Positions 26,430-44,100 of a DNA stretch of 64,000 bases are shown piece after piece. Within the stretch, counting starts at the first letter, position 1. Each line of letters opens with the position of its first letter. The stretch covers positions 480,001 to 544,000 of the forward strand of contig CAVRDX010000001.1 in NCBI GenBank assembly GCA_963719945.1, in the 5' to 3' direction. The DNA comes from an uncultured Thermoplasmata archaeon (GTDB lineage Archaea; Thermoplasmatota; Thermoplasmata; UBA10834). Both the position numbers and the translations under genes were made by a program. The notes beneath the pieces are model-generated. The model was not told the origin of the DNA, did not search any database, and was given only the letters and a program-made list of their open reading frames with translations.

Positions 26430-27395
26430 ATGGCCTTACTAGAAGTCCAAGGGCTAAGGACTTATTTCAAAACGCAAGAAGGAACGCTGAAAGCAGTCGA
26501 TGGTATCGATTTCAACCTGGACAAGGGTCAGGCAATGGGTCTGGCCGGAGAATCAGGTTGTGGAAAAACCACCGCGGCTCTGTCCATCATGAAGCTTCTG
26601 CCAGCAAACGGATATATCGCTGGCGGAAAGATCAATTTCATGGGCCAGGACATGGCAAGGGTCACGGGCGACAAGCTCCGTGCAATCCGGTGGAGGGATA
26701 TTTCCATCATTTTCCAGGGTGCGATGAACGCTCTCAATCCGGTCAAGCGTGTCGGCGAACAGATTGTCGAGCCCATCGTTCTACATGAGAAGGTGGATCA
26801 AGAAGTCGCATTGAAGCGTGTCAAGGAACTCTTCGAGATGGTGGGTATCAACCCGAACAGGATACGGGAATATCCGCATGAGTTCAGCGGCGGTATGCGG
26901 CAGAGGGTCATGATCGCAATGGCTCTTGCATGTAAGCCAAGACTCGTGATCGCAGATGAGCCAACGACCGCACTTGATGTTATGATACAGGCTCAGATCA
27001 TAGCACTTCTGAAGAGCCTTCAGAGGGATCTCGACCTGGCTATGATTGTCATTTCTCACGACTTGTCTGTCCTAGCCGAGACCTGCGACCTCTTGGCAAT
27101 CATGTACGCAGGGAAGATTGTCGAGAAGGCTCCTGCGGAGCAGGTCTTCTATGATCCACAGCATCCATACACCAGGGGACTGATTGCAGCTTTCCCCAAC
27201 ATTCACGGTGAGAAGAAGATGCCTGCATCGATCGCGGGTAACCCACCGAACCTGATCAACCCAACAATCGGCTGCAGGTTCTATGACAGGTGCTTCATGA
27301 AGCAGGACGCCTGTAAGACAAAAGAGCCTCCACTCGTAGAGGTAAAGCCCGGGCACTGGGCTGCATGTCATTTCGTGCCACCGATGAAGGGGTGA
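26430..27395 (+). CDS. oligopeptide/dipeptide ABC transporter ATPase (OppD-like)
   Basis: [31 protein letters not shown]-terminal Cys cluster. Confidence 0.92.
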
Positions 27396-27401
27396 TCTGA
27401 G

Positions 27402-28502
27402 ATGGTCAAGGATATTCTGGTTGTCAAAGACTTGCAGGTTTGGTTCCCCGTAAGACAGGGATTCGTCGAGAGTCTAGTCTCAAAGGAGCAGAGGTTTGTG
27501 AAGGCAGTGGATGGCGTCTCATTCAACATCAAGGAGAGGGAGATATTCTGCCTCGTTGGTGAATCCGGATGCGGCAAGACCACCACTGGAAAAGGTATTC
27601 TGAGACTCGTCGAACCGACTGGTGGCAGCGTCAAGTATTACGGCAAAGGCAAGGAGATCCTCCTCAAGGATATGATATCTGAGGCGCTTGCAAAGAAGAA
27701 GATCACGAAGGCGCAGGCTGACAAGATGACGGCTGACAGCGGAATTGATGTCCGTGCTCTCCATAAGGGCAAGATGAAGAAACTCCGCCAGAAGATGCAG
27801 ATCATCTTCCAGGACCCGTATGAATCGCTCAATCCGAAGCAGTCGATTTATGACATAATCGCCGAACCGTTGGTCGTCAACGGGATAGGCTCGACTGAGG
27901 CTGAGAGAGAGAAGAGGGTCATAAAGGCACTCGAGGATGCAGGTCTCAGACCGCCGAAGGACTACATGTGGAGATATCCGCACGAGGTATCTGGAGGTCA
28001 GAGACAGAGGGTAGGCATTGCAGGGTCCCTCGTGCTCGAGCCAGAGTTCCTGGTTGCCGATGAACCGGTCTCTATGCTCGATGTTTCGATCAGGTCCGAG
28101 ATCCTGAAGCTCATGCTCGACCTGAGAGACAACAGAGGTCTCGCATTCCTGTTCATAACGCACGATCTTGGTGTGGCATATGTGTTCAGTGACAGGATCG
28201 GCATCATGTACTTGGGCAAGATCGTGGAGCTTGGGCCAACGGAAGAGGTCGTCAAGAACCCGAAGCACCCGTACACGAAGGCACTGATATCGGTCGTTCC
28301 GACCCCGGATCCTGAGCGGAGGAGAGACAAGATCATCCTCAAGGGCGAGAGACCAGATCCATCGCACATACCTCCAGGATGCAGGTTCCACCCGAGATGC
28401 CCGTTCGTAATGGACATCTGCCGGAAGGAAGCTCCCGCGTCGGTATTCGTATCAGAAGGCCACTGGGTCGCGTGTCACCTCGAGAAGGGGAAGCCCCTAT
28501 AG
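27402..28502 (+). CDS. oligopeptide/dipeptide ABC transporter ATPase (OppF-like)
   Basis: [39 protein letters not shown]. Confidence 0.92.
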
Positions 28503-28659
28503 ACACGGTCTGATCGACCGTTCAGAGGGTCTTTCGATCCAAACCACCTCAAACTCTTTGATTATCTACTTAAGCACTGTCAAGCGAGCATGAGATACTT
28601 TTTTAGTGTGTGGAACGATTGCTCCAGGCTGCCGATGCAGCACATAGATGGTCGATTGA

Positions 28660-29868
28660 ATGAAGGCCAATAAATCAGATACATTCAATAACGTCAAACG
28701 AGCGGTCCCCAAATCGGAGATAGAATCATTGGTCAAGGACCTGGTGAGGATACCTAGCCATAGTCAGGTACCTACTCGCGAGAAAGAGGTCGCAGAGTTC
28801 CTGCACGAGTTCTTGACAGATGAGGGAATCGATTCCAAGCTCAGAAAGGTCGAGAAGGACCGATATAATGTCATAGCGACGCTCAAGGGGTCAGGAACGG
28901 GAAGCAGTCTAATGCTCAATGGGCATCTGGACACAGTCCCTCCGTATGACATGGACATCCCGCCGTTCACGCCAAAGGTTCAGGGAGGGAAGTTGTACGG
29001 ACGCGGCGCCCTCGATATGAAGGGTGGCTTGGGTGCGATGGCAGCGACCATATTGGCACTGGACCGTGCGAAGATAGGCCTGAAAGGCAATGTCTATCTC
29101 ACGGCGGTCGTGGGCGAAGAGGAACGAAGCGAAGGGACCGAGGATATCGTCATCAGAGGCCCCAAGGCAGACATGGCCATAGTGGGGGAACCTACAGACC
29201 TGGAGATTCAACCGTCCCACAGAGGCCTGGAATGGCTCGAGGTGCACTTCTACGGAAAGGCGGCACATGGTGGACAGGCGGCCCAGGGCGTGAATGCGAT
29301 ATCGATGGCCGCGAGGTTCGTCAATCTACTGGATACTGAACTGTTGCCACGTATTCGCGAGCGGAAGAGTGCTCACACGGACCCGCCAACGCTGAATATT
29401 GGCGTGATTCAGGGGGGTCAGCAACCCAGTTCAGTCGCTGATCATTGCGTGGTGAAGATCGATAGACGATGGACTCCAGAGGAGGACCTCCAACAGGTCT
29501 TCAAGGAGATATACAAGTTGTTCGACGAGCTGAAACGCGATGACCCTCATTTCAAGGCGGAGCTCAAGCGAGACTCGACGAACATGAAGACGATGACGCA
29601 TGTGCCAAACGTCGTCCCAACCGATCATAGGTTGGTCAAATCCCTCAGTGAATCCGTGAAGACGGTCACGGGCAAACCAGCAAAGATGACAAGTTTCTGG
29701 GGATGGACGGATGCGGCTCTCCTGACACATTTCGGAAAGACCCCTGCGGTCATATTCGGTCCTGGAGGGAAAGGCGCACACTCGAGAGTGGAATATGTTC
29801 TCGTCGACGATCTGCAGAAGTGCATGCACGTGTACGCCAAGACCGCCATGGACATGTGTGGCGAGTGA
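28660..29868 (+). CDS. M20 family deacylase (ArgE/DapE-like)
   Basis: NGHLDTVP, GRGALDMKGG, GEE, GEPT, G..AH. Confidence 0.88.
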   Translation: MKANKSDTFNNVKRAVPKSEIESLVKDLVRIPSHSQVPTREKEVAEFLHEFLTDEGIDSKLRKVEKDRYNVIATLKGSGTGSSLMLNGHLDTVPPYDMDIPPFTPKVQGGKLYGRGALDMKGGLGAMAATILALDRAKIGLKGNVYLTAVVGEEERSEGTEDIVIRGPKADMAIVGEPTDLEIQPSHRGLEWLEVHFYGKAAHGGQAAQGVNAISMAARFVNLLDTELLPRIRERKSAHTDPPTLNIGVIQGGQQPSSVADHCVVKIDRRWTPEEDLQQVFKEIYKLFDELKRDDPHFKAELKRDSTNMKTMTHVPNVVPTDHRLVKSLSESVKTVTGKPAKMTSFWGWTDAALLTHFGKTPAVIFGPGGKGAHSRVEYVLVDDLQKCMHVYAKTAMDMCGE

Positions 29869-29871
29869 GGT

Positions 29872-31482
29872 TCAGGATACACGTGGCTTGTGTCTCAATA
29901 CCTGGCCAGCTCGCTCCTTCGTATGATCTCCATCTTGTATGGTGATGAGGCCGTTTACGAATACATGGACTATTCCTTCTGGATACTGATGAGAGTCTTC
30001 GAACGTAGCCTTGTCTCTGATGGATTCTGGGTCGAACACGACGATGTCCGCAGCCATCCCTTTGGCTAGCATTCCCCGGTCATTAAGACCGATCCGCTCA
30101 GCAGGCGATGAGGTCATCTTCCGAATAGCCTCCTCCATCGAGAATAATCCCTGCTCGATGGAATATCGTCTTATGACCCTGGGGAAAGTTCCGTATGATC
30201 GGGGATGCGTCTGCGTGTCTCCCGTCGGACCATAAGGGGCCTCCGACTCGCCATCTGACCCGATGACAGACAGCGGATGGCTGATCACCGTTTTCACATC
30301 ATCTTCGGATATCTCATGGAATATCGCGAAGGAGCCCAACTCTTCTTCGATGAGAATGTCAAGGGCGAGGTTGTCCGGATCGACTTGCAGCTCGGACGCT
30401 GCGTGCGATATCGACCGATTCTCGAACATGCGATACTTCTCACTCTTCAGCCCAATAAGTACTATCCTGTCCCAGCCATCTTCTGCGACTGTGTTCTCCC
30501 ACTCGGTCTCCTTGTTCAGAAAGGCTCGCTTTATCTCGTCCCTCGTCTCGTCATCTCTTAGTCTCTTCAATATGGAATCTTTCCCACCATCTCGGATGGC
30601 TGGAGGAAGGATTGAATCAAGCCAGGTCGAGGACGCAGTGTAGGGATATACGTCGAAAGCGACATCGACTCCCTCTGATCGGGCAGCCTCGATCATAGCT
30701 ATTGTTTTCTCAACCAAGCCCCAGTTATCTATCCCGATCGCCTTGTGATGAGATATCTGGACGCGACTCGCCGCTTCTCGTCCAATCTGGATCGCCTCGG
30801 CCACTGCTCTCACGACAGTTCTGCCTTCTCCGCGTATATGACTCGCGTATAATCCACCCAAGGATGCGGACGTCGATGCAAGGGCTATCAATTCGTCTGT
30901 GGATGCAAAGCATCCAGGGGCATATATGAGGCCGGAGGATATGCCGTAGGCGCCTTCGATCATGGCCTGTGCCAATAATTCGTTCATCTGCCGTAGCTGG
31001 CTCTCTGTCGCCTTGATATCATCCGCTCCGATCACACCAAGCCTGAGCGTCTCCGCTCCTACGAGTGATGCGACATTTACAGAGGTCCTCACATCCGATA
31101 GATGTAGAAGATATTCATCGAATGTCGACCATGTAATGTCTACCCAGAGTTTCTTTGCTTCTTCCACCGCTTGTTTTTTGGCTGCTCCGATCAGAGGTGC
31201 GGCGGAGCCACCACAATTCCCCATCAGCTCTGTGGTCACTCCCTGTCGTATCTTGCTTTCCGCCAGCGGACATCCCAGGAGGTTGATGTCCGAATGAGTG
31301 TGAATGTCTATGAAGCCTGGGCAGACCACGAGACCTTCGGCATCTATGTTCATGGAAGCTTTGCCATCTCCAGGCTTGTATAGCCTGCCTATCCTGAAGC
31401 CATCGATCACGAGATCCATCTTCACGCCCGGCGAACCCGTTCCATCTATGATTGTCCCGTTACGAATGAGGATGTCGTGCAT
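29872..31482 (-). CDS. N-acyl-D-amino-acid deacylase (D-aminoacylase) family amidohydrolase
   Basis: PGFIDIHTHSD, GVTTE.MGNCG, SHIRGE, DVYPY, HPRSYGTFPR. Confidence 0.88.
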   Translation of the reverse strand: MHDILIRNGTIIDGTGSPGVKMDLVIDGFRIGRLYKPGDGKASMNIDAEGLVVCPGFIDIHTHSDINLLGCPLAESKIRQGVTTELMGNCGGSAAPLIGAAKKQAVEEAKKLWVDITWSTFDEYLLHLSDVRTSVNVASLVGAETLRLGVIGADDIKATESQLRQMNELLAQAMIEGAYGISSGLIYAPGCFASTDELIALASTSASLGGLYASHIRGEGRTVVRAVAEAIQIGREAASRVQISHHKAIGIDNWGLVEKTIAMIEAARSEGVDVAFDVYPYTASSTWLDSILPPAIRDGGKDSILKRLRDDETRDEIKRAFLNKETEWENTVAEDGWDRIVLIGLKSEKYRMFENRSISHAASELQVDPDNLALDILIEEELGSFAIFHEISEDDVKTVISHPLSVIGSDGESEAPYGPTGDTQTHPRSYGTFPRVIRRYSIEQGLFSMEEAIRKMTSSPAERIGLNDRGMLAKGMAADIVVFDPESIRDKATFEDSHQYPEGIVHVFVNGLITIQDGDHTKERAGQVLRHKPRVS

Positions 31483-31608
31483 TAGAAGCCTCCAAGGATC
31501 TCTCTCGAGGGGGAGAGTATCTCCATATTCTATGTCATTTTGGGCTGATTATTTAACATTATGTCGCGCTGACAAGGATTATATCGTATCTGCACATTAA
31601 TCGAAGCG

Positions 31609-32469
31609 ATGAAGTACGAGTTCCGTTTTGAGAAATATCAGGGCTGTGGGAATGATTTCATCCTTAAGGATGAGATGGATGATGACAGAATTCCTGATGA
31701 TCACAGAAGCGAGATGGCAAAGTTCCTTTGGGATAGGCATTTCTGGGTAGGCGCGGATGGAGTCCTATTCGTCGAGAAAGCTCCTGGAGTCGACGGATCG
31801 ATGCGCCTCTTCGAGCCTGCCGGGAACGAGGCCGATATGTGTGGGAACGGACTCAGATGCGTGGCCGCTTTCCTGATGGAGAAGCTTGGCAAGAATACGG
31901 TAGACGTCCTCACGAAGGATGGAGTCAAGCATGTCGAACGCACGCCAGAGGGAATCAGGGTGGATATGGGATTGGTGAGGACCCTCCGGAAGGACTTGGA
32001 TCAGTATATCACAGATAAAGGCGGACCTGAAGACTCCATGATGTCTATCGCCCTGTCCATCGGGGATTCCACTGTAACGGCATCGCTGATCAATACTGGC
32101 GAGCCGCATATGATAATCTTCACCGACGACATAGATGCGGTCCCAATGGTGAATATCGGGACACATGTCAATAAAGACAGAGCACGATTCCCAAAGGGGA
32201 TGAACATCAACTATGTCCAGATCACGGGGCCTCATGACATAAGCGTGAGGACTTACGAACGAGGAGTCTACAACGAGAGCATGGCCTGTGGCACGGGATC
32301 GACGGCATGTGCAGCGGCCTCACTGATGCTAGATAAGATACAGCCTGGAGCCGTCAACGTCAAGACTCTAGGCGGCATGCTCGTCATAGAAGTAGATGAA
32401 AATGCGAGAGCGGTCATGACCGGTCCCGCAGAGAAAGCGTTTGAAGGGAAACTGACGGTCGAGGTATGA
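31609..32469 (+). CDS. DapF-fold epimerase/racemase with an altered distal substrate pocket
   Basis: GNDF, catalytic MCGNG and ACGTG, YERG; but RLFEP and GEPH where DapF normally has RIFN and GNPH. Confidence 0.85.
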   Translation: MKYEFRFEKYQGCGNDFILKDEMDDDRIPDDHRSEMAKFLWDRHFWVGADGVLFVEKAPGVDGSMRLFEPAGNEADMCGNGLRCVAAFLMEKLGKNTVDVLTKDGVKHVERTPEGIRVDMGLVRTLRKDLDQYITDKGGPEDSMMSIALSIGDSTVTASLINTGEPHMIIFTDDIDAVPMVNIGTHVNKDRARFPKGMNINYVQITGPHDISVRTYERGVYNESMACGTGSTACAAASLMLDKIQPGAVNVKTLGGMLVIEVDENARAVMTGPAEKAFEGKLTVEV

Positions 32470-32504
32470 TGGATAACTGGCATCCTCGAACCGTGTTTCT
32501 TTGA

Positions 32505-33881
32505 TCACTTCGCGGACTTCATCTTCTTGAGGACTTCCTCTGCAGCCTTGAGCGTGTTATCTATGTCCTTATCGGTATGCTCAGTGCATGTATAGAACGG
32601 CTTGTCCGGATGGAAGTGCATGCCCCGTGCCAGCAGACCGTAATCGAACTGCTTCCGCGCGGTTTCATCCATCTTGAGGGTATGCCTGTAATCGCGGATA
32701 TCGTCCAGCTTCTGGCCCTCCTTCCCGAACAGAACATTGAACGTCGATCCCGGACCCAGGGCTTTCGCATTGAATCCAAGCCTCTGGAACAGGTCGTTCA
32801 ATCCATCCTGGAACTTGTCCGTGATCCTCATGAGGTATGGATAGGTCTCTGGCTGCTCCAGTATATCCATTGTCGCCATGCCTGCGGCCAATACCGTCGG
32901 GTGTCCGTTGAATGTACCTCCATGGAAGACTCGATTGTCCTTTGCGCGGGTGACAGGGTTCACGACATCCATTATCTCCTCTTGTCCCAGGAACGCGCCA
33001 CACGGGAATCCGCCGCCGATGATCTTTCCGAGGCACATCAAGTCCGGAGTTATCCCGACCATGGTCTGTGCCCCACCGAGCTTATCCATCCTGAACCCGG
33101 ACATTACCTCGTCGAATATGAGGATGATATCGAGCTCCGTGGTGGTCTCCCTGACGGCCTTCAGGAACTCAGGTTCCCCTTCGATGAAGCCACGCTGTAC
33201 GGGCTCCATGATAACCGCTGCCAGGTCGTTCTTGTGGGCTTTCAGGAGCCGAATCGTGTCGTGGATATCGTTGAATGGGAGCACCTGCGTGCTCTGAAGC
33301 GTGTATTCTGATGTCCCCAGGGAACATGCGACGGCCTGAGGCGCGGCTTCGGGCCCTGCGACCTCTTCGCTCGGGGTCAGGCTCACTAGAGCCTCATCGT
33401 AGCATCCATGATAATGCCCCTCGAACTTAGCAATCCTGTTCCTCTTTTTGTATCCCCTAGAAACTCTAAGGGCGTGGAGCGTCGCCTCAAGTCCTGAATT
33501 GGTGAAGCGAACATATTCCGCGCATGGGAATATCTTTTCCAGACGCTGAGCCATCTTTGCTTCCATCTCGTGTGGAGCGCCGAATATCGCAGTTCCATCA
33601 GTGTCCAGCTGCTTCTTGATGGCCTCATGGACCTTTGGATGTCCGTGGCCGAGGATCATGGGCCCGAAGCATAGCATGTAGTCGATGTATTCGTTCCCGT
33701 CCAGGTCCCATATGTGGGATCCCTTGGCCTTGTTTGCATAGACAGGGTATGGCGGGTAGTACTTGACGTTCCCCGTCACGCCTCCTGGCAGGTACTCCTT
33801 CGCGAATTCGAACCATTTGGCGCTCTTCTGCGTTTTAGCCTTGTATTCAGCCACCGCGTCGTATGGTGTCATTTCAATCAC
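32505..33881 (-). CDS. class III PLP aminotransferase (GSAM-like; candidate beta-aminoacyl-CoA transaminase)
   Basis: DLDGNEYID, RFTNSG.EA, FEGHYHG, IFDEVMSGFR, GKIIGGG, GTFNGHP. Confidence 0.88.
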   Translation of the reverse strand: MIEMTPYDAVAEYKAKTQKSAKWFEFAKEYLPGGVTGNVKYYPPYPVYANKAKGSHIWDLDGNEYIDYMLCFGPMILGHGHPKVHEAIKKQLDTDGTAIFGAPHEMEAKMAQRLEKIFPCAEYVRFTNSGLEATLHALRVSRGYKKRNRIAKFEGHYHGCYDEALVSLTPSEEVAGPEAAPQAVACSLGTSEYTLQSTQVLPFNDIHDTIRLLKAHKNDLAAVIMEPVQRGFIEGEPEFLKAVRETTTELDIILIFDEVMSGFRMDKLGGAQTMVGITPDLMCLGKIIGGGFPCGAFLGQEEIMDVVNPVTRAKDNRVFHGGTFNGHPTVLAAGMATMDILEQPETYPYLMRITDKFQDGLNDLFQRLGFNAKALGPGSTFNVLFGKEGQKLDDIRDYRHTLKMDETARKQFDYGLLARGMHFHPDKPFYTCTEHTDKDIDNTLKAAEEVLKKMKSAK

Positions 33882-34645
33882 CCGAGGTATATCTTCTCTG
33901 GATCGAGCGCTCTGAGCGTGGAGATCTCCTTCTCGGTCGGTGGAGGGGTATTCTCCAGCTTAGGCGAGACCTTCAGATCCCATGGAGTGTTCTCCTTTAC
34001 CTTCTCCACAGTAGCTCCTGGGTGCAGGGACACCAGAGTCATCTCTCCAGTGACCTCATCGAACTTCATCGTGCCCAGGTTTGTTACGACGGCATATGGG
34101 CCGCCGCCCTGAAGCCCGAGCTTCTTCCAGGCTTCTTTTCCGTCCATGAATCCAGGACTGGTCTTGAAATCGACCTTCTCCACGAATCTGCGCTTCTCAT
34201 GTGGAGTTATCACTATGATCTTCTTGACGTTCGAGGCAATGTCACAAGCGCCACCGCTTCCAGGCAGTCTTACCTTAGGCGTCTTGTACTTGCCGATTAT
34301 CGTGGAGTTGATGTTGCCATATTTGTCGATCTGCGCCCCTCCGAGGAATCCAACATCAATCCTGCCGCCTTGAAGATAGTATGCGAACTGTTCGTACATC
34401 GAGCATACACTCTTCGCGCCGGTGACGAGGCATGGGTCCCCTATGGACAAAGGCATCCTGCTAGGGTTGGAACCGACTGCTCCGGACTCGTATACCATGT
34501 TGAGTCCGGGTGCCTGCAACTTCTTCGCGAGGTTGGCTGCCAGGTTGGGTATTCCCACACCGACCAGGACAGATTCTCCGTCCTTGAGTTCCCTCGCAGC
34601 GACTATGACCATCAGCTCACTTGGTGAAACTTCTGTCATCTTCAT
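33878..34645 (-). CDS. family I CoA-transferase beta subunit (GctB-like)
   Basis: VGVGIP, YESG (catalytic Glu), FLGGAQIDKYGNINST, LPGSGGA. Confidence 0.9.
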   Translation of the reverse strand: MKMTEVSPSELMVIVAARELKDGESVLVGVGIPNLAANLAKKLQAPGLNMVYESGAVGSNPSRMPLSIGDPCLVTGAKSVCSMYEQFAYYLQGGRIDVGFLGGAQIDKYGNINSTIIGKYKTPKVRLPGSGGACDIASNVKKIIVITPHEKRRFVEKVDFKTSPGFMDGKEAWKKLGLQGGGPYAVVTNLGTMKFDEVTGEMTLVSLHPGATVEKVKENTPWDLKVSPKLENTPPPTEKEISTLRALDPEKIYLG

Positions 34646-34652
34646 GACCTCC

Positions 34653-35570
34653 TCATACACTCCCATAATTCACAGGGGCACTGTAAGCTGCCTTCGGAAG
34701 GAGCTTCAATACCTTCTCTGACGAGAGCTTCTTCATGTATGCCGCACGGTCCTCCACTCCATATACCCACTCATCGAGGTACTTCATGGTCGTCTCGTGC
34801 TCCTTCGTTACATCATCCCATTGCATGTAGAACTCGTTATCCCTGTCGTAATATCCCTGGGTATAGGAGGGATGCGCACACCATGGCTCGCAGACCACCG
34901 CATGAGAGATGAAATCAGGTATCAAGGTCCTGTTCGGATCGGACCGGATGACCGACTCATCAACTATCTCCTCACAGCTTATGATGACCTTCTTGGCAGC
35001 GAACGCTGCATCCTTCTGTTCGCCAGTTATGCCCCAGATGTGACAGTTGCCCATAGCATCTGCCCTCTGGACATGCACGACGGCGACATCAGGGTTCAAG
35101 GGTGGCACGATGGATACCTCCTCGCCAGTGTACGGGTTGTTGATGGTCTTCATCAACGGGTTCTCTGGTGGCAGGTCCGAGCCGAGATTGGTCCTCATCG
35201 GGAGGAACGGCATCTTGGTGGCTCCCGCAAACAATCTTCCCGAGAGCCCGAAATGTGTGTACTCCTCAATCTCGATTGGATTTGGAACGCCCTTCTCAAG
35301 AGCCCTTCTGAAGCATCTTAGAGAGCCAACGCCAGGGTTCCCAGCGTAGCTGAACATCATCTTCTTGGCGCAGCCAGCTGCGATCATCTGGTCATAGATG
35401 ATGTCCGGCGTAGCTCTGCACAAGGTGAGGTCTTTGCGCTTCTGCCTGATGATCTCATGTCCTGCAGCGAACGGGATCATGTGAGTGAATCCCGCCAGGT
35501 ACACGGTGTCCCCGTCCTTGACGAACTTTGACACCGCTTCCTTCATTGTCATCGATTTCGTCGAATCCAT
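34653..35570 (-). CDS. family I CoA-transferase alpha subunit (GctA-like)
   Basis: EAVSKFVKDGD, GFTH.IPFA, PDVAVVHVQRAD..GN, AHPS....YYDRD. Confidence 0.9.
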   Translation of the reverse strand: MDSTKSMTMKEAVSKFVKDGDTVYLAGFTHMIPFAAGHEIIRQKRKDLTLCRATPDIIYDQMIAAGCAKKMMFSYAGNPGVGSLRCFRRALEKGVPNPIEIEEYTHFGLSGRLFAGATKMPFLPMRTNLGSDLPPENPLMKTINNPYTGEEVSIVPPLNPDVAVVHVQRADAMGNCHIWGITGEQKDAAFAAKKVIISCEEIVDESVIRSDPNRTLIPDFISHAVVCEPWCAHPSYTQGYYDRDNEFYMQWDDVTKEHETTMKYLDEWVYGVEDRAAYMKKLSSEKVLKLLPKAAYSAPVNYGSV

Positions 35571-35571
35571 A

Positions 35572-35997
35572 TCAGTTCCCCTCCAAATCGGGTGTGAACT
35601 TGAAACCATATCGGATTACGCCTTCTTCGACATAGACCTTCTTCAACTCCGCTTTGACGGGCATATCGAACTTGACCTCTTTCGGGTTGACATCGCTCAT
35701 CTGGCCTATGACCTTGGGGCCTTCCTCTAGCTCAACGATGGCGACAGGATATGACCCGCCGGACCTCATCTGTTCAGCGAACTCCGGAGGAGCGCCACCA
35801 GCGCCGATCAGAACGAAGGTGTGTATCTTGCCCTTTCCGCTGAGTTGGATTTCATCGAACTCGGACGAGGCGTTGCAGTACTTGCACACACCCTTCGGGG
35901 GGAAGTTGACGGCCCCGCACTTCTTGCACTTCTGGCCGACCATCTTGTATCTCTGGGGTATTGTCCTCCAATACATCGGGACTGAAACATGTGCCAT
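35572..35997 (-). CDS. DUF35 Zn-ribbon/OB-fold thiolase partner
   Basis: WR..PQRY...G.KCKKCG...FPP...CKYC, IRYGFKF. Confidence 0.92.
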   Translation of the reverse strand: MAHVSVPMYWRTIPQRYKMVGQKCKKCGAVNFPPKGVCKYCNASSEFDEIQLSGKGKIHTFVLIGAGGAPPEFAEQMRSGGSYPVAIVELEEGPKVIGQMSDVNPKEVKFDMPVKAELKKVYVEEGVIRYGFKFTPDLEGN

Positions 35998-36008
35998 ATC
36001 TGTTCACC

Positions 36009-37025
36009 TCACTTTAGGGCTCCCTTGAGTTTGAGGTATTGGATGTAATCGATGTACTCCTTCTTCTCAAGCTGAGCCTTCAGACTCGGATTTGCTTTCC
36101 TCTCGCCTACCACTTTGAAGCTCATTGCATCGCTACCGGCGCCAGAGCCATAGGAGACTACCATGATCCTGTCACCGACTTTTGCAGATTCGAGCGCGGA
36201 CACCAATCCAACCGGAGTCGACGCCGCTCCCAGGTCTCCCATTGTAGCGGAAACCATGCTGGATGCGAGCTTCGCAGGATCGATTGTCAGTTTTCCAGCG
36301 ACTGATGCCGGGGCCTTCGCATCAGCCTGATGAATAACCACATGGGCATAATCCTCGGGTTTGGAGCCAAGCTTCTTCATCAGCGAAGAGCAGGCCTTTG
36401 TCGTTGTGGAAACAAATGCAGATGCTGAGAACTTCTTTACACCCAAATCTTGGATCATGTCCTCGTTGGATGGTCTGAAGCGCTCACCGAAATGCTCCAT
36501 GGCATAGGATGCAGAACCCTCGAATTCCGCCATCAGGTTCTCCGAAGACAGAACGAAACCAGCAGCACCTGCGCCGAGGCCATGCTCCGTCGAATCCCAC
36601 ATGCTCGCCTTTGGCGCGTCACAAGCAGCAACGACCGCTACACCACTCGGATTCGCCTTGAGATGCTCGAAGGCAGATATCAACGCCTCCGTCCCTGCGC
36701 GCGTTGAGGAAGTATGGTCGCTGCAGAATGCAGAGTTCGGCATGCCGACATTTACGATAACTGTGCCAGACAACATCTTCTCTAGGTACGGTGCGGATGT
36801 CGATGCGAATGCGAACCTCGACACCTTATCTGCCGTCATCGGTACGGATGCCAGGGCACTTTTCGAGACCTTCGCAGCGGCTGTGAGGACGTCCTCATCA
36901 AAGCTCATCACCGACTTCTCGGCCACTCCTGGCGCCTGGAATGATCCCCATACCTTTGCATAATCTTCCTTCTTGATCCTGAGCCGTGGGACATATACCC
37001 CATATCCAGATATTCCAACTGCCAT
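36009..37025 (-). CDS. HMG-CoA synthase-like protein lacking the catalytic Cys/Glu (scaffold, PhlA-like)
   Basis: GYGVYVPRLRI, DEDVLT, SYGSGAGSDA fold motifs; ASTSAPY instead of GSES.PY and DHTSSTRAG instead of FACKAG. Confidence 0.8.
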   Translation of the reverse strand: MAVGISGYGVYVPRLRIKKEDYAKVWGSFQAPGVAEKSVMSFDEDVLTAAAKVSKSALASVPMTADKVSRFAFASTSAPYLEKMLSGTVIVNVGMPNSAFCSDHTSSTRAGTEALISAFEHLKANPSGVAVVAACDAPKASMWDSTEHGLGAGAAGFVLSSENLMAEFEGSASYAMEHFGERFRPSNEDMIQDLGVKKFSASAFVSTTTKACSSLMKKLGSKPEDYAHVVIHQADAKAPASVAGKLTIDPAKLASSMVSATMGDLGAASTPVGLVSALESAKVGDRIMVVSYGSGAGSDAMSFKVVGERKANPSLKAQLEKKEYIDYIQYLKLKGALK

Positions 37026-37031
37026 CCAGAA

Positions 37032-38198
37032 TCACCTCTCCATAATAGACACGGAAACTGTGCCGCCGGACCCACCGACATTATGTATGAGCCCTCTCTC
37101 AGCGTTCTTGACCTGACGGACGGGTTTGTTGACCTGTCCACGCAGCTGGTTGAACATCTCATATGCCTGACCGGTCCCGGTGGAGCCGATCGGGTGCCCC
37201 TTGGATTTGAGTCCTCCGCTCGGGTTGATGGGCATATCCCCTCCAATCTGAGTATGCCCCTCCTCGATGAACTGACCTGCCTTCCCCTTCTCGCAGAATC
37301 CGAGATCCTCGGTTGCTAGAAGTTCGGCAATAGTGAAGCAGTCATGGACTTCAGCCAAGTTCATGTCCTTCGCTGTCCTGCCTGCCATCTTATATGCCTG
37401 ATCAGCAGCCCTTCTGCTGCCCTCGAGCGTGACTGTCCTTACCCTGTCATGTATTGCTAGGTAGTCACTCGATGTGCCGAAACCGGTGACATATATCGGA
37501 GTGTCCGTGAACTGCTTAGCGATCTCAGCATCGCATACCAGGACCGATGATGCGCCATCCGTAGTCGAGCAACAGTCGAACAGATTCAGAGGATATGCTA
37601 CGATCGGGGCCTTCATGGCCTGTTCCAAGGTAATCTCTCGTTGGAATTGAGCCTTGGGGTTCTGAGCCCCGTTCTTGTGGTTCTTCAATGCCACCATTGA
37701 TAGATGCTCCCTCTTGGTGCCGAACTCATGCATATGCCTGTGGGCTATGAGCGCGTAAAGACCCGCAAATGTAGTTCCAGCGAGCCTCTCGTATTCAGTG
37801 TCTCCAGACACGCCAAGCCAATACTTCTGCTTCATTCCAGAAACATCGGTCATCTTCTCGACGCCACCTGCTATGACCATCTTGTGGGCGCCTGAAAGAA
37901 CATCCATTATCGCGGCAACCAATGCATAACCACCGGATCCGCATGCGTTTTCAATCCTTACAGTGTGTATGTAGGGCAGTCCCGCGTACTCTGCGACAAG
38001 TGCCGACATGTTACCCAGCTGGAATCCACCGGACCCAAGGTTGCCAATGTATGCACCTTCGATCAGCTTCGGGTCGTAATTCTTGTCCACACTCGAAGCC
38101 ATGTCCTTGTACGCTTCAAAGAACAGTTCCTTTATTCCCTTCTCGGGAAATTCGCCGTACTTGCTCTGCCCTGCTCCGACAATCGCTACTTTCCTCAT
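37032..38198 (-). CDS. archaeal/SCP2-type thiolase
   Basis: ENACGSG, EVHDCFTIAE, NPSGGLKSKGHPIG.TG, HNVGGSG. Confidence 0.92.
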   Translation of the reverse strand: MRKVAIVGAGQSKYGEFPEKGIKELFFEAYKDMASSVDKNYDPKLIEGAYIGNLGSGGFQLGNMSALVAEYAGLPYIHTVRIENACGSGGYALVAAIMDVLSGAHKMVIAGGVEKMTDVSGMKQKYWLGVSGDTEYERLAGTTFAGLYALIAHRHMHEFGTKREHLSMVALKNHKNGAQNPKAQFQREITLEQAMKAPIVAYPLNLFDCCSTTDGASSVLVCDAEIAKQFTDTPIYVTGFGTSSDYLAIHDRVRTVTLEGSRRAADQAYKMAGRTAKDMNLAEVHDCFTIAELLATEDLGFCEKGKAGQFIEEGHTQIGGDMPINPSGGLKSKGHPIGSTGTGQAYEMFNQLRGQVNKPVRQVKNAERGLIHNVGGSGGTVSVSIMER

Positions 38199-38396
38199 AT
38201 TAGGTCCCTCGCATCGCTCGCCACAACCTGCCACACGCACGAAGTCGTGCGACGGTCGTCAGCAGCCATTCTGCGAGTCTGGTATGGCAATTTTTCGAAA
38301 CACGAATCCGCCTATATAACCATTGGTGATTAACACACATCTCTGGACCGTTTTAGACAGCGTATTACGAATCCGTGTTATCGGTCACGGTCATTT

Positions 38397-38420
38397 GTTC
38401 CCTTTTTCGTAGTTTATAAA
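38397..38420 (+). promoter_or_regulatory. candidate Lrp-type operator GTTCCCTTTTTCGTAG abutting the kamA TATA box TTTATAAA
   Basis: 13/16 match to GTTCCTATTTTCGTAC upstream of the Lrp gene at 48384-48399. Confidence 0.5.
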
Positions 38421-38513
38421 CGACAGTTCGTAACAAGTTCGACGATAGCCTGAGCAGATGATAAATACGCAGTCTAATATTTAGTCAATCGAACATCTGA
38501 TGAGGTATTGCGC

Positions 38514-39785
38514 ATGAGGTCTTACAAGGATATTGCTCTGTGGAAAGACGTCACACCCGAAGAATGGAATGATTGGAAGTGGCAACTGAGAAACAGGATC
38601 ACGAGCGTAGACCAACTGAAGCAAGTAATCAACCTCACGCCTGAGGAAGAGGCTGGTGTCCGTGATTCGCTTAGGATTCTGAGAATGGCAATCACGCCAT
38701 TCTACGCGACCCTCATGGACCCTAACGACCCCCATTGTCCGGTTAGGATGCAGGCGGTCCCGACAGCCAAGGAGATCGATTTCAGCGAGGATGACATGGA
38801 GGACCCTCTCTTCGAGGACATAGACTCACCAGTCCACGGATTGACTCACAGATATCCAGATAAGGTACTCTTCCTGATAACCGATCAATGCGGCATGTAC
38901 TGCAGGCACTGCACTCGGAGGAGGCTCGCAGGTCAGACGGACACTGAAAGGGATTCTAATACAATCGATGCCGTCATAAAATACATCGAAGAGCACGAAG
39001 AGATACGCGATGTGTTGCTTTCCGGCGGTGACCCACTCACCGTGTCCGACAAGGTCTTGGAAAACATCATATCACGGTTGCAGGCGATCGACCATGTCGA
39101 GATTGTTAGACTGGGAAGCAGGACACCATGCGTCCTGCCTCAGAGAATAACACCTGAGCTATGCGATATGCTGAAGAAGCATCACCCCATCTGGCTCAAC
39201 ACGCATTTCAACCACCCAAAGGAGATAACCCCTGAAGCGAAAGCTGCTGTCGAGAGACTTGCGGACGCAGGTATTCCCGTCGGAAACCAGAGCGTTCTTC
39301 TCAAGGGCATAAACGATTGTCCAACGATAATGAAGAAACTCGTCCACGAACTTGTGAAGATGAGGTGCAGGCCATACTACTATTACCAATGTGATATGTC
39401 CCGAGGAATCGAACACTTTAGGACCTCTGTCGCCAAGGGTGTGGAGATCCAGGAGGCCTTGAGAGGACACACATCAGGATATGCCGTCCCATTGTTCATT
39501 GTCGATGCTCCTGGAGGCGGAGGGAAGATCCCGCTCAGTCCGAATTACTTCGTGAGCATGTCCGACAAGCGCATAGTGCTCAGGAACTATGAGGGCGGTA
39601 CTTTCCAGTACCCAGAGCCAAAGGACCGTGTCAGCACATGTCCACCTACCTGCAAGATGTGCAAGGATTACAGCAACATTGAGAGCAAGGAAGGTGTCGC
39701 GGGTGTTCTATCTGGAAATAAATTCGCGCTGATACCAGAAGGGAACGCAAGGGCCGAGAGACGCAAGCATTACGACAAACACTGA
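38514..39785 (+). CDS. kamA: lysine 2,3-aminomutase (radical SAM, PLP)
   Basis: WNDWKWQ, HRYPD, CGMYCRHC, LLSGGDPL, YQCD and VDAPGGGGK (both Lys-binding Asp plus PLP Lys), C-terminal Zn Cys. Confidence 0.93.
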   Translation: MRSYKDIALWKDVTPEEWNDWKWQLRNRITSVDQLKQVINLTPEEEAGVRDSLRILRMAITPFYATLMDPNDPHCPVRMQAVPTAKEIDFSEDDMEDPLFEDIDSPVHGLTHRYPDKVLFLITDQCGMYCRHCTRRRLAGQTDTERDSNTIDAVIKYIEEHEEIRDVLLSGGDPLTVSDKVLENIISRLQAIDHVEIVRLGSRTPCVLPQRITPELCDMLKKHHPIWLNTHFNHPKEITPEAKAAVERLADAGIPVGNQSVLLKGINDCPTIMKKLVHELVKMRCRPYYYYQCDMSRGIEHFRTSVAKGVEIQEALRGHTSGYAVPLFIVDAPGGGGKIPLSPNYFVSMSDKRIVLRNYEGGTFQYPEPKDRVSTCPPTCKMCKDYSNIESKEGVAGVLSGNKFALIPEGNARAERRKHYDKH

Positions 39786-39882
39786 CGGCCTTATCAAACC
39801 CCTTAGGAAGCCATTTTGTTTAAATCCGAAACAATTAAGAATGAATATCATATCTTCGGATTCAAGCCTGCGAGGCGAGCCT

Positions 39883-41079
39883 ATGGACAGGAACATTCTA
39901 ATTGAGGAGTTGACGCACACTCCAATTGAACAACAGACTGTTGAATTCGTCGAAAGAAAAGGTATCGGCCATCCGGATAGCATTGCGGACGGGCTTGCCG
40001 AGAGTGTAAGCCGTGCACTGTCTCAGATGTATATCGAGAGATACGGAAGGATTCTCCACCACAATACTGACGAGACCCAGATCGTGGGTGGACAGTCTGC
40101 ACCGAAGTTCGGTGGCGGCTCGATCCTCGAGCCGATATACATACTCCTAGTAGGAAGGGCTACCACGAATGTCAATGGCGAGCGACTTCCGTACAGAACT
40201 GTCGCAATGAAGGCGGCATATTCCTACCTCGAGAAGACGTGCAAGAATCTCGACGTCGATTGGGACGTAGTCCTTGACTGCATGATCGGCCAGGGTAGCG
40301 TTGACTTGACGGGCCTCTACGAAACCCAGAGACTGTTGGCCAACGATACGTCGTTTGGTGTTGGATTTGCACCATTCAGCGAGACAGAGAAGATAACTCT
40401 CGAAACTGAGAGATACATTAACGGCAAGCTCTGGAAGAAGATGCCGGAGGTAGGCGAAGACGTTAAAGTCATGGCCTGCAGGAACGGCTCTAGCATCGAT
40501 CTTACAGTTGCGGCAGCGATGGTATCCTCCAAAATTCCAGACAAGAGCCACTACAAGAGCGTCGTAGAGGAACTCCGGGAGAATATCGCTGATTTTGCAT
40601 CAAAGTACACTAAGCGGAACCTCAGAGTGTTTGTCAACACGGCGGATGACTACAAGAAGAACATCTATTACCTGACAGTATCCGGCCTTTCGATGGAGAA
40701 CGGCGACGATGGATCTGTTGGCAGGGGAAATCGAGCTAACGGCCTCATCACGCCGATGAGGCCCATGAGCATGGAGGCATCAGCCGGCAAGAACCCTGTC
40801 ACACATGTCGGTAAGTTGTACAACCTGCTCTCGATCAGGGTTGCCGATGAGATCTACAAGATGGGCAAGGGTGACATACTGGAAGTTCACACGAGGATAC
40901 TGTCACAGATTGGAAAGCCCATCGATTATCCACAAGCGGCGAGTGCCAACATGATATTCGCGCCCAATGTGGACAAGAAGAAATATCAGAAGGAAGCAAC
41001 CGCAATCTTCGACGAGAAGCTCGCGACAATAAACAAACTGACTGACGAGATCGTCGCTGGTAAGTTGACAGTATTCTGA
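39883..41079 (+). CDS. mat: S-adenosylmethionine synthetase (archaeal type)
   Basis: [49 protein letters not shown]. Confidence 0.96.
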
Positions 41080-41118: not shown

Positions 41119-44100
41119 CTATGACCCTAGTTCTATTCTTTTGATCTCCTCTTCTCTATCTCTGAGGATCTTGGCCAGCTGCTCGAGCTCATCTTGGATG
41201 GATTGAAGCCTGCTCCATTCCTCCTCGAGCCTCTGTTCATCTTTTCGGATCGTCTCCTCGCGGTCTGAAATCTTCAGGTAGAGTCCGTCCAGTTCCTCTT
41301 TGCGGCGCTCGAGTTCCTCGAAAGTCTTCTCATCGACCGATGTAAGACCCTGCTTAGAGGCATCGACCTTCTCCCACAAGTCCTGGATTTCGGCTCGTTC
41401 ACGCTCAAGCCGTTCTAGCTCGATTATGAGGGTCTTCTCGCGGCTCTCAGTATCGCGTTCCTTAGCCTTGATCGATTCGTCCATGCGGCGCAATTCTAGT
41501 TCGCGCCTAAGGAGGGCATCCTCGTCTGGGGTGACAGGTTTCGGCTTAGATACGGCCATCTCCTTCGATATCTCAGCGACGCGTTCGCGCACTTCCTCCT
41601 CCAGCTTCTCCCTACGCTCCAATAGCTCCTCGCGCCACTTCTCGAGCTCAATACGGAGCTGGTCCAGCCCTGCATCCTTCTGTGCTATGGTGGATCGTTC
41701 TCTATCCAGCTCTATCTGGAGAAGCTCGAACTCATCTATTCCACGCTCTAATTCGACCACGCGCTTATCCAACGACTCCTCTTTGGCCCTAAGCGCCTCC
41801 TTCTCCTTTGAGATCTCATCAAGCACGGTCCTGTAATCGGATATTGATTGGTCAACACCTTGCTCTCGCATGTTCAGAGCAGTCTCCCGTGATGTCTGTT
41901 TCTCAAGGTGTGACTGTAATTCTGACTCTCTACGGACAAATTCGTCTTCTTGTGATGACAATCTGCTCTCGCGTTCCAGCAGGGCCGCCTCTTTCCCAGC
42001 GAGTACCGCTTCGACTTCCCCGGAGGCGCTCATCGCATTATCTATCTCAGCCTTCTGCTGTTCCAGCTCATTTCTGAGGCGTTCCAGCTCTTCTCTTTCT
42101 TGAGATGCAGCGATAGATTCGTCCTGGGATATGCGCTTCATCTCCGACTCCATCAACGCCAATGCAGTTTCTCGGGCCTCTAGCTCACTCATCTTCTTTC
42201 CAAACTCAGCTTCACTTGAGGATACGTGAGTGACCCGTTCTTGATGCTCCGCCTCAAAAGCAGATATCCGTTCGGATAGGCTCTTCTCAGCATCTGACAA
42301 TTCGGCCCTGAATGCTTCGAGCTCCTGTTCCTTGGTCTCCATCAGAGCTGATCTCTCCCGCAGCTCATCCTCTTTTGTTGAGATGTTGGCATTCAATTCT
42401 CTAAGGCCTGCATCCTTCTCTTCGAGCTCCCGTCTATGCGCTTCGATCTCTGCCTTGGATGCTGTTATGTCAGATTCCAATTTTGCAGCTGCAACCTCAT
42501 ACGATTCGCGATCGGCTGCGAGTGATTCGATGCTCTTATCCAATTGATCTCTATCGGAGTTGAATGATGAAACCTGATGCTCGAATTGACTCATCTTTTC
42601 AGCGAGGGTCGCTCTATCCGCGTTCAGGAGCGACATAGCCTCGTCAAGTGATACTCTCCTTCGCTCGATATCCTGCTCAAGAGAAGATAGCTCCTCCCGC
42701 TTGGATGCGCTCTGAGATTGAGTATCTGAGAGCTCGCCTCGGATCGTCTCAATCTCCCTCCGCTGTGATTCGATCTCCGACAACTGACTCTCCAGGTCAT
42801 TCTTGCCAGCCTTCAGCGACTCATCCTTCTCTGCAAGCCCCTGTTCCATGGATTCGAGGTCAGACCTGAGATTCTCGAGTTCGGCATTCTTGGTCTCAAC
42901 ATCCTTCTCTCTCTGCTCAAGTTCAATTGACCTCTGATCAAGTGTCTCAGCATGTTCGGTATGAGCTTTCCTGTGAGATTCGATCTCCACTCTTGATGAT
43001 TCGATCTCCGCCTGCATCCTCGCTAAATCATCAGATGCGCGGGCCCGTTCCTCCTCGAACAATTTCCGCTCTGCCTCGGTCGAACTGCGGATTTCATCGA
43101 GGTCGCTCTGGGCTCTATCAAACTCACGCTGGCGATCCTCGATTGCTCGTTCCTGTTCGGCCAGACGCTGCTCACGTCCACTGACTTCCTTTTCGAGTTC
43201 CCCCATCTCGCTTTTGACTGTCTCGAGAGCCGCCTCTGTCTGCGTCATCCGCACATCTCGTTCTTCCAATGAAGCCAGTTTGGCCGAGTACTCCGAACGC
43301 ATCTGTGCCAGGGCATCTTCCGATTCGCGCTTCGTTGCCTCCAATGACGCTTTTGTGGATTCGAATTCGTGATCTCTCGTCTTGAGATCTCTTTCCTTTG
43401 CACTGAGGCCGGATGCTATCTCATCCAATTCAATCTTCCAAGTCTCGAGCTCTGACTGCATGGATGATATCTCCATGGACTTCGCATCCAACTCATCCTT
43501 CGTCTTGTTGAATTCAGTCATCTTCTCGTCGACTTCGATACTCTTCTTCTCCAGTTCCGACAGCTCGACCTCATTCTTCACCAGTTGATCCTTCAGAACT
43601 CTTTCTCGCTCATCTAGTGTGCTTCGAGTCTGTTGTAGCATCTCGGCTGTCGATTTCAGATTATCTTGTTTTACTGCAAGTTCCCGCTCCATATCCTCGT
43701 AGCTCTCAGAGCGCTTGTTATGCTCACGCCTAATAAGGTCCAGTTCGACGCGCTCCTCCGCCATCTTGAGTTCTTGCGCGGCGATATCACTGGACCTCTG
43801 ATCCAGTATATTCTTCATCTCATCGACGGAGTAGCTCTTCTCTTCAATCTCCTTTCGCTCCTCCTCGATCTTTGCAAGCTTATCCTCATATGATGATTGC
43901 AGTTCGGAAATCCTCCTCTGCGTATCCGCGCTGGAGTTATCGAACGCGATCTTATCTTGCTCCAAGGAATTGCGGTCGAGAGTCAGTTTCTCCCTTGTAT
44001 CCTCGACTTCCTTGGCGAAAGAATTCTTCTCGTCCACGATTATATTCCGCTCTTCTTCGAGAGAATTCCGTTCTGCTTCGATTTTTGAACTCAGACCCTT

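Follow-up and report, generated by a model that had tools for sequence, protein, structure and literature searches.

Beta-lysine catabolism in Pseudomonas B4, studied in the Barker laboratory in about 1979–1981, is reportedly independent of vitamin B12, with N6-acetylation as its first step and a transamination at C3 that leads to 3-keto-6-(acetamido)hexanoate. A coenzyme A (CoA)-dependent C-C cleavage is said to follow, giving a C2/C4 unit and 4-(acetamido)butyryl-CoA; deacylation of the latter yields 4-aminobutyrate. We know of no genes that have been assigned to this route, and lysine fermentation via beta-lysine is, to our knowledge, known solely with the B12-dependent 5,6-aminomutase. A literature search returned nothing on the Pseudomonas beta-lysine enzymes, and for marine group II archaea no paper dealing with beta-lysine or the aminomutase was retrieved. 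The present analysis concerns a gene cluster around a lysine 2,3-aminomutase gene (kamA) in a 64,000-nucleotide stretch of DNA from an uncultured Thermoplasmata archaeon. This stretch, referred to as the window, comprises positions 480001–544000 of contig C1 of a 1.78-Mb, four-contig genome (G000), which is 87% complete; all genome-wide absences reported here share that limit.

Two described systems provide the closest enzyme sets. A variant lysine fermentation featuring Kat (the aminotransferase for 3-aminobutyryl-CoA; EC 2.6.1.111), AtoAD and a thiolase was reported for Cloacimonas acidaminovorans and for a genome from the Bacteroidetes (Perret et al. 2011, PMC3149608). Kat is a beta-aminoacyl-CoA transaminase that is annotated as HemL-like, and its gene adjoins a thiolase gene (PMC3149608). 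In Bacillus subtilis, a region extending from kamA-yodP to yodT is known, the function of which is still called unknown (PMC6522883, PMC9049628).

For the cluster in the window, catabolism of beta-lysine by transamination and thiolysis, in an order that is left open, is tentatively proposed, the chance of this being correct lying a little below even. A preceding sequence-only reading of the same DNA had fixed the order of events as CoA activation of beta-lysine, transamination to 3-oxo-6-aminohexanoyl-CoA and thiolysis; this exact sequence of steps is considered much less likely than the general proposal.

Lysine 2,3-Aminomutase and the Divergent Operon

The aminomutase of the cluster, KamA1 (38514–39785, plus strand), is a radical S-adenosylmethionine (SAM) enzyme with pyridoxal phosphate (PLP), the start of which was set at the ATG at 38514 because alignments to relatives begin there. 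It scored 600.8 bits on the lysine 2,3-aminomutase model TIGR03820 (cut-off 525.4), and the glutamate and arginine aminomutase models both stayed under their cut-offs. Two Asp residues of lysine 2,3-aminomutase, Asp293 and Asp330, bind lysine at its epsilon-amino group. Alignment to the C. subterminale enzyme (2A5H, E 3e-171) showed that Asp293 (YQCD), Asp330 (VDAPGGGGK) and the PLP-binding Lys337 are kept and that the CxxxCxxC cluster motif reads CGMYCRHC, so that the presence of both lysine-specific Asp residues, as noted earlier, was borne out. Judged by its family score and these two residues, KamA1 is probably a lysine-type aminomutase making L-beta-lysine. A second enzyme, KamA2 (G000:C3:297613–298887), is 65% identical to KamA1, has the same specificity residues and is encoded in nearly all genomes of the family, operon-less ones included. 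Since this second KamA exists elsewhere in the genome, KamA1 can be regarded as an extra copy tied to the operon. The KamA2 gene is a solitary one, flanked on one side by a histidine-kinase-like gene and on the other by a gene for a diphthamide synthase.

Divergent from kamA, six genes are located on the minus strand. They encode a thiolase of the archaeal ACAT type (37032–38198; NF004720, 477.7 bits, cut-off 420), an HMGS-like pseudo-enzyme (36009–37025; TIGR00748, 181 bits vs. a cut-off of 353), a DUF35 protein consisting of a zinc ribbon and an OB fold (35572–35997; PF12172, PF01796), the subunits A (34653–35609; PF01144) and B (33878–34666) of a family I CoA-transferase of the glutaconate type and a GSAM-like class III aminotransferase, termed AT3 (32505–33881; PF00202). 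All genes named in the sequence-only reading were recovered with essentially unchanged coordinates, and the tight packing that it had described is reflected in gaps of 6 and 11 bp and overlaps of 38, 14 and 4 bp. Because the genes overlap, they are very likely co-transcribed.

The divergent control region between kamA and the operon spans 315 bp (38199–38513). TATA-like boxes were found at about 38312–38319 in the operon direction and at 38460–38467 in the kamA direction, and TTCGTA elements occupy 38406–38434 with an inverted copy at 38365–38372, this repeat being unique in the window. Aligned across 15 genomes representing four genera, these blocks of the region, the TTCGTA elements among them, proved to be conserved. 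Furthermore, a 15-base motif, GTTCC-NN-TTTTCGTA, is present in exactly two copies in the entire genome (38397–38411 and 48384–48398), the expectation being ~0.04 matches per window. The second copy (plus strand), 8 kb from the first, lies 18 bp upstream of the start codon of a gene for an Lrp/AsnC-family regulator (47968–48366, minus strand); in two other genera (genomes G018 and G013), the Lrp gene likewise has this motif upstream. All ten best matches of this gene in a feature-based atlas were Lrp/AsnC clusters (top 0.99), and the gene is 82–88% conserved in three other genera. An Lrp-type regulator is predicted, with some probability, to control the divergent kamA/operon promoter region. 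The divergent promoter between the Amidohydro_3 and DapF genes contained no kamA-type motif. The sequence TTTATAAA next to the motif was considered as the TATA box of kamA and rejected, as it is not conserved in relatives; the conserved GATAAATA is situated nearer to the kamA start codon.

Aminotransferase AT3

The best match of AT3 was GSAM (288 bits). Assignment to HemL was ruled out by three observations. AT3 scored under both hemL cut-offs (TIGR00713, 363.9 vs. 527.3; NF000818, 392.3 vs. 398). AT3 (TGNVKYY) and its orthologues (TGNVK[YF][YF]) lack the SSPVRAF motif with Arg32 that all compared sequences of the HemL clade possess, and the QFEA stretch with its Glu is absent from them as well. 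Moreover, AT3 is placed outside the HemL clade. The sequence-only reading had suggested a tree with Kat and HemL; in the tree calculated here, which does not include Kat, the HemL clade (cyanobacteria, Bacillota, Nitrospira and Methanosarcinaceae) is separate from AT3 with Shimodaira–Hasegawa-like approximate likelihood ratio test (SH-aLRT) values of 95–97, and AT3 groups with a Thermoplasmata metagenome-assembled genome, P0121 and non-HemL Bacillales enzymes. Structure matches of AT3 include 4AO9 and 2YKU, which are counted among the beta-amino-acid transaminases, and AT3 represents a candidate beta-amino acid or beta-aminoacyl-CoA transaminase. A feature-based atlas look-up of AT3 returned generic names only.

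Within the sister group of AT3, a relative from Geomicrobium halophilum (42% identical) is encoded divergently from an adjoining KamA-family radical SAM gene (L087:7378–11347), and this locus may represent another aminomutase-linked beta-amino-acid route. It also harbors a gene of the fumarylacetoacetate-hydrolase family, an RpiR regulator and a TRAP transporter. A further member of the sister group is a metagenomic enzyme with 45% identity, the gene of which is immediately preceded by two CoA-transferase genes; amidohydrolases and Opp permeases belong to the same cluster, and there is no kamA within 10 kb. Regarding the nearest representatives of AT3, P0122 and P0281 have unrelated neighbours, the contigs of P0121 and P0123 are short, and the context of P0124 is informative.

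Thiolase Complex and CoA-Transferase

The best solved relative of the thiolase is chain A of 6ESQ (1.7e-90), i.e., the acetoacetyl-CoA thiolase found in the mevalonate complex of archaea. The CxS (CGS/CAS), HDxF (HDCF) and GHx (GHP) motifs, as defined for ACAT in PMC12960953, are all present and do not vary among 15 genomes from four genera. The HMGS-like protein, in turn, had been called inactive, and this was confirmed by alignment to the genuine HMGS of the same genome: its E-C-H-N tetrad reads T, T, H, D, with Glu, Cys and Asn replaced by Thr, Thr and Asp, and in the other genomes of the family it reads T, T/S, Q, D, i.e., His is changed to Gln too. Among solved structures, PhlA (9SKH/5M3K, 1.5e-42) comes closest to this protein, by a small margin over archaeal HMGS (6ESQ chain I). 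The DUF35 protein is predicted to represent the third subunit of the thiolase complex. Archaeal ACAT and HMGS have a fused, shared CoA site, and each of them is insoluble or inactive when expressed alone (PMC12960953), which would explain why the dead HMGS was retained. In the bacterial acylases MucABC and PhlACB, neither the tetrad of HMGS nor the thiolase motif HDxF has survived (PMC12960953, 2026). Only the HMGS half is dead in the window, and the trio is therefore most simply read as a genuine Claisen thiolase whose former partners were retained as scaffold, the HMGS-like protein being its probable scaffold and CoA-site partner.

A second trio of thiolase, HMGS and DUF35 genes, of the mevalonate type, was found at G000:C1:679211–681839. 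Its HMGS is genuine (578 bits), and the window thiolase and DUF35 protein are 47% and 37% identical to their counterparts in this trio. The mevalonate-type thiolase itself shows Cys to Gly in CxS and His to Asp in GHx. Catalytic residues are missing from this thiolase in 29 of the 30 genomes inspected, which belong to several families of the class; across relatives (loci L040–L069), the CxS Cys is replaced by Gly (by Asp in one genome) and the GHx His by Asp, Gln or Asn, and G030 is the only genome with both Cys and His. Such a non-catalytic thiolase may matter for archaeal lipid synthesis and its supply of acetoacetyl-CoA.

The CoA-transferase subunits, 318 and 262 aa in length, have GctA and GctB as best solved relatives (1POI chain A, 1.1e-46, and chain B, 5.2e-51). 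The catalytic Glu (ESG) of subunit B aligns to that of GctB and is invariant in the family. No paralogue of subunit A was found in the genome. The similarity to Gct of ~35–40% leaves the specificity unfixed.

Genes of the B12-Dependent and AblB Routes

The absence of kamD, kce and ablB, claimed earlier for the window, was borne out and extends to the whole genome. No match to PF09043 (kamD) was obtained, although this model also matched no control genome, and none to PF05853 (BKACE/kce). For ablB, the best TIGR03827 match in the whole genome reached 19 bits (cut-off 205), and a tblastn search of the genome with the Bacillus AblB gave nothing at E 1e-3. GNAT matches number 28 in the genome and 0 within the window. 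A canonical kamDE/kdd/kce set elsewhere in the genome had been named as a finding that would refute the sequence-only reading; kamD and kce were not found, and kdd and kal were not part of the search.

Four B12-binding matches were considered as KamE and rejected, as they include corrinoid proteins adjoining MttB- or MtmB-like genes. These MttB-like and MtmB-like genes, without in-frame stop and each adjoining a corrinoid protein gene, are located at G000:C1:234734–238119 and C1:336014–338193, and one of the two loci also has an adjoining gene for a pterin-binding protein. Their gene content suggests methylamine or betaine demethylation in a non-methanogen.

Conservation of the Cluster in Related Genomes

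Of the 24 genomes sampled from the family, every one has an orthologue of AT3 (at least 67% identical) apart from a single genome of the same genus, whereas 14 other families of the class, represented by 16 genomes, yielded none. Moreover, the linkage of kamA, the operon and the M20 gene persists, with kamA divergent, in all four sampled genera of this one Thermoplasmatota family, and the gene order from the MFS gene to metK is identical in 14 loci from the four genera. Synteny of kamA, the thiolase trio, the CoA-transferase and the aminotransferase, proposed earlier as a check on Thermoplasmatota genomes, is thus kept in four genera of one family, but the whole neighbourhood is collinear there. 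Genome G004 lacks both the operon and KamA1 and keeps the mevalonate-type trio. In G016, a fragment of a type I restriction enzyme replaces the stretch from KamA1 to half of CoA-transferase A, which is truncated.

Proposed Beta-Lysine Route

The steps of the proposed route are all deduced from sequence and gene context. Neither dapA nor lysA was found in the genome, and lysine is therefore probably taken up in the form of peptides. L-Lysine would be converted to L-beta-lysine by KamA1, and the 3-amino group would be removed by the GSAM-like aminotransferase with a 2-oxoacid as acceptor. Before or after this transamination, the carbon chain would be put on CoA by the glutaconate-type CoA-transferase. 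From 3-oxo-6-aminohexanoyl-CoA, or an N6-acylated version of it, the thiolase would then release acetyl-CoA, leaving 4-aminobutyryl-CoA or the corresponding N-acyl compound. The transferase would probably move the CoA of the product to the next substrate molecule, thereby freeing 4-aminobutyrate. The thiolase complex would have been inherited from the archaeal mevalonate pathway, with the HMGS subunit and DUF35 serving as scaffold and shared CoA-binding partner only.

Several lines of evidence support this reading: the linkage of kamA and operon in all four sampled genera of the family, the failure to find kamD, kce and ablB, the separation of AT3 from HemL, the intact thiolase motifs and transferase Glu, and a parallel in Bacillales. 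Some support also comes from the Geomicrobium and metagenomic relatives of AT3 and from the 15-base motif shared by the control region and the Lrp gene. The order of steps, the fate of the N6 position and the restriction of the linkage to one family are its weak parts. For CoA activation prior to transamination, as assumed in the sequence-only reading, no specific support was obtained; homologues of the transferase that occur with thiolase and DUF35 fit activation of a 3-oxoacid about equally well.

The following observations weigh against the proposed route. Free 6-amino-3-oxohexanoyl intermediates should, on chemical grounds, cyclise to a 1-pyrroline. No AblB homologue is encoded in the genome, whereas the Bacillales cluster has an AblB acetyltransferase, and the M20 gene may simply be part of an OppDF/S58 peptide-uptake unit. 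The linkage is confined to one family in which the entire neighbourhood from MFS to MetK is collinear, so that adjacency, being explained by shared descent, offers no independent functional test. An orthologous cluster is absent from the 16 genomes of the class sampled outside the family, and a scan of 185,579 species with an AT3 profile showed no such cluster among the matches listed, mostly true HemL and Bacillales enzymes; these matches exclude the family's own members, and the scan cannot show absence elsewhere. In G017, a closed genome of the family, thiolase and KamA1 are missing, and yet the HMGS-like protein, DUF35, both CoA-transferase subunits and an intact aminotransferase are retained. 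Furthermore, the CoA-transferase is of the glutaconate and not of the AtoAD type, and its closest solved relative takes dicarboxylates and short acids, which hints at acidic substrates. Distant homologues of the transferase (29–41% identical) in three other families adjoin thiolase and DUF35 genes, and none of these loci, one of which has a short-chain dehydrogenase, includes an aminotransferase or KamA. Because the distant pairs carry neither, transferase and thiolase would form an older module, to which aminotransferase and KamA were added in this family.

In G017, the site of the thiolase, KamA1 and MetK genes is taken by translation-factor genes and a gene for a NosD/PKD surface protein.

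Flanking Genes and Alternative Functions

Adjacent to the operon are genes for peptide and amino acid conversion, and the neighbours named in the sequence-only reading were all recognized again. OppD and OppF ATPases (26430–28502, plus strand) are followed by an ArgE/DapE-family M20 deacylase (28660–29868, plus strand; TIGR01910, 282.8 bits, cut-off 217.6), a D-aminoacylase-like amidohydrolase (29872–31482, minus strand; PF07969) and a DapF-fold epimerase (31609–32469, plus strand; TIGR00652, 226 bits, cut-off 114.65). For the M20 protein, the closest equivalog model is NF005373 (236 bits, cut-off 428), on which the M20 proteins of Bacillales kamA clusters reach 702 bits, and a Bacillus M20 query against the genome retrieved the window protein as best hit (37%, 1e-56; next paralogue 1e-23). 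It is possibly a deacetylase of an N-acyl intermediate or else a peptidase of the Opp unit. The D-aminoacylase-like protein matched D-aminoacylase (1M7J, 2e-84) and N-acyl-D-glutamate deacylase (3GIP, 2e-78), and its membership in the pathway is uncertain; together with M20 it could remove an N6-acyl group, but both may equally serve peptide uptake. The DapF-fold protein, the genome's only DapF homologue, keeps both catalytic Cys motifs, and its two distal-site Asn residues are changed to Glu (RIFN to RLFE and GNPH to GEPH); the gene is missing at the locus in one genus. Interpretation of DapF and M20 as lysine biosynthesis genes was rejected, given the missing dapA and lysA. The DapF-fold protein is probably not lysine-biosynthetic, and its place in the pathway is uncertain.

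In most genomes of the family, a Peptidase_S58 gene (DmpA/BapA-type D- or beta-aminopeptidase) lies between OppF and M20 (e.g., L025:4362–5453 and L029:4209–5441). The equivalent site in the window is 28503–28659, and no S58 gene was found there or elsewhere in this genome.

On the other side of the cluster, 55 bp 3′ of kamA, the single metK of the genome is located (39841–41079, plus strand; archaeal type, PF01941, 560 bits). Its adjacency to kamA is kept across the family, and its functional membership in the cluster is doubtful. The gene that follows (41119–45978) encodes a 1619-aa protein with an N-terminal DUF835 and otherwise no Pfam match.

This context is in keeping with the alternative that survives best, according to which the operon is a general module for breakdown of beta-amino acids or 3-oxoacids, with KamA1 as at most one of several feeders or a mere neighbour. 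The module could act on 3-aminobutyrate, on compounds of the beta-alanine type, on beta-glutamate or on the beta- and D-amino acids that imported peptides release, and such a function is judged rather unlikely, though it deserves serious consideration. It would account for flanks that represent a peptide and D-/beta-amino-acid set (OppDF, M20, D-aminoacylase and the altered DapF, with S58 in most relatives), for the pairing of CoA-transferase homologues with thiolase and DUF35 in other families without KamA, and for the 45%-identical AT3 relative after CoA-transferase genes with no kamA within 10 kb. Retention of aminotransferase and transferase without KamA1 in G017 and the glutaconate, i.e., dicarboxylate, type of the transferase point in the same direction. 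However, KamA1 is an extra copy found only where the operon is, and kamA and operon share a conserved control region, the motif of which otherwise occurs only at the Lrp gene. Moreover, Bacillales tie KamA to the same enzyme classes.

A supply of acetoacetyl-CoA from the operon to the mevalonate pathway, offsetting the dead mevalonate-type thiolase, is improbable. It would be in keeping with the loss of the nucleophilic Cys (to Gly) and the GHx His (to Asp) in that thiolase next to a genuine HMGS, the window trio showing the reverse. However, the dead thiolase occurs in the 29 genomes mentioned above, which represent several families, most of them without the operon, and both G004 and the closed G017 lack the window thiolase yet keep the mevalonate-type trio; in addition, aminotransferase and KamA would be left without a role. 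Finally, a PhlACB/MucABC-like C-acyltransferase or condensing function of the trio, in a cluster building a beta-amino or acylated small molecule, is similarly improbable: PhlA is the best solved relative of the HMGS-like protein and loss of the HMGS tetrad is a hallmark of bacterial Friedel-Crafts complexes (PMC12960953), but the acylases lack HDxF, whereas HDCF, CxS and GHx are invariant in the window thiolase, which is closest to archaeal ACAT, and the context is one of peptide uptake and hydrolysis with no further biosynthetic genes nearby.

Returning to beta-lysine catabolism, its fullest form would be a complete B12-independent pathway from lysine to acetyl-CoA and 4-aminobutyrate. In such a pathway, a duplicated mevalonate complex would act as dedicated 3-oxo-6-aminohexanoyl-CoA thiolase, in concert with a GSAM-derived beta-lysine(-CoA) transaminase, a CoA-recycling glutaconate-type transferase and a lysine-sensing Lrp. 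That all of these parts apply is unlikely, albeit well within reason. If true, a thiolytic beta-lysine route would, for the first time in any organism, be described at the level of genes, which would provide genes for a short, B12-free route and suggest a role for the unexplained kamA cluster of Bacillus. It would furthermore exemplify the re-use of a primary-metabolism complex with one subunit kept as scaffold only, and the metabolism of an archaeal lineage that is abundant and uncultured and apparently lives on peptides would gain a sink for amino acids.

Comparison with Known Systems

Loci obtained in the AT3-profile scan served as entry points to search for KamA in five Bacillales genomes. 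Four clusters were identified in three of them (Fictibacillus, Alkalihalophilus and Bacillus sp. SD075), with the order sigma-54 regulator, AblB, KamA, class III aminotransferase, 3-oxoacid CoA-transferase A and B, M20 and amino-acid permease, and they match the B. subtilis kamA-yodP region. Their KamA is of the lysine type and 56–58% identical to that of the window, and their M20 is 32–37% identical to the window M20. The Bacillales clusters encode the AblB/YodP beta-lysine acetyltransferase and no thiolase, whereas the window shows the reverse. In addition, their aminotransferase is BioA-like (24–27% identical) and their transferase is of the SCOT/Ato type, both being analogous and not orthologous to those of the window. 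Since these enzymes come from other subfamilies, this combination of enzyme classes has been assembled around a KamA of the lysine type independently, on two or more occasions.

The Kat route and the window have in common an HemL-like class III aminotransferase with a thiolase and a two-subunit CoA-transferase, a likeness in context and annotation. Both the Kat route and the route proposed here start with KamA and include conversion of a beta-amino to a 3-oxo compound by an aminotransferase, followed by thiolase cleavage. However, the Kat route needs the B12-dependent KamDE as well as Kdd and Kce, the C4 product being the substrate of Kat, whereas kamD and kce were not found in the window genome. 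Likewise, AtoAD of the Kat route stands against a glutaconate-type transferase in the window, where the thiolase belongs to an archaeal three-subunit complex. The Pseudomonas B4 route is said to yield acetoacetate via a Kce-like enzyme; in the window, a thiolase is present and no acetyltransferase is linked to it. With respect to AblA/AblB, the cut-off of the AblA equivalog is exceeded by KamA1 as well as by KamA2, but the genome is without AblB and the partner genes look catabolic.

As far as the archaeal mevalonate thiolase/HMGS/DUF35 complex (2018) is described where it is cited in PMC12960953, it shares its three subunits and their gene neighbourhood with the window trio. The window HMGS, however, lacks the tetrad, so that no HMG-CoA can be formed, and the CoA-transferase and aminotransferase genes replace mevalonate-pathway genes in the operon. 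The Friedel-Crafts acyltransferases PhlACB and MucABC (5M3K, 9SKH; PMC6392133, PMC12960953) have three subunits and a tetrad-less HMGS-like subunit in common with the trio, but their thiolase-like subunit is devoid of the HDxF motif that the window thiolase keeps as HDCF, and the context of the window gives no hint of an aromatic or tetramic-acid acceptor. In comparison with these systems, the cluster is regarded as a variant of known lysine and beta-lysine routes and not as a new kind of system.

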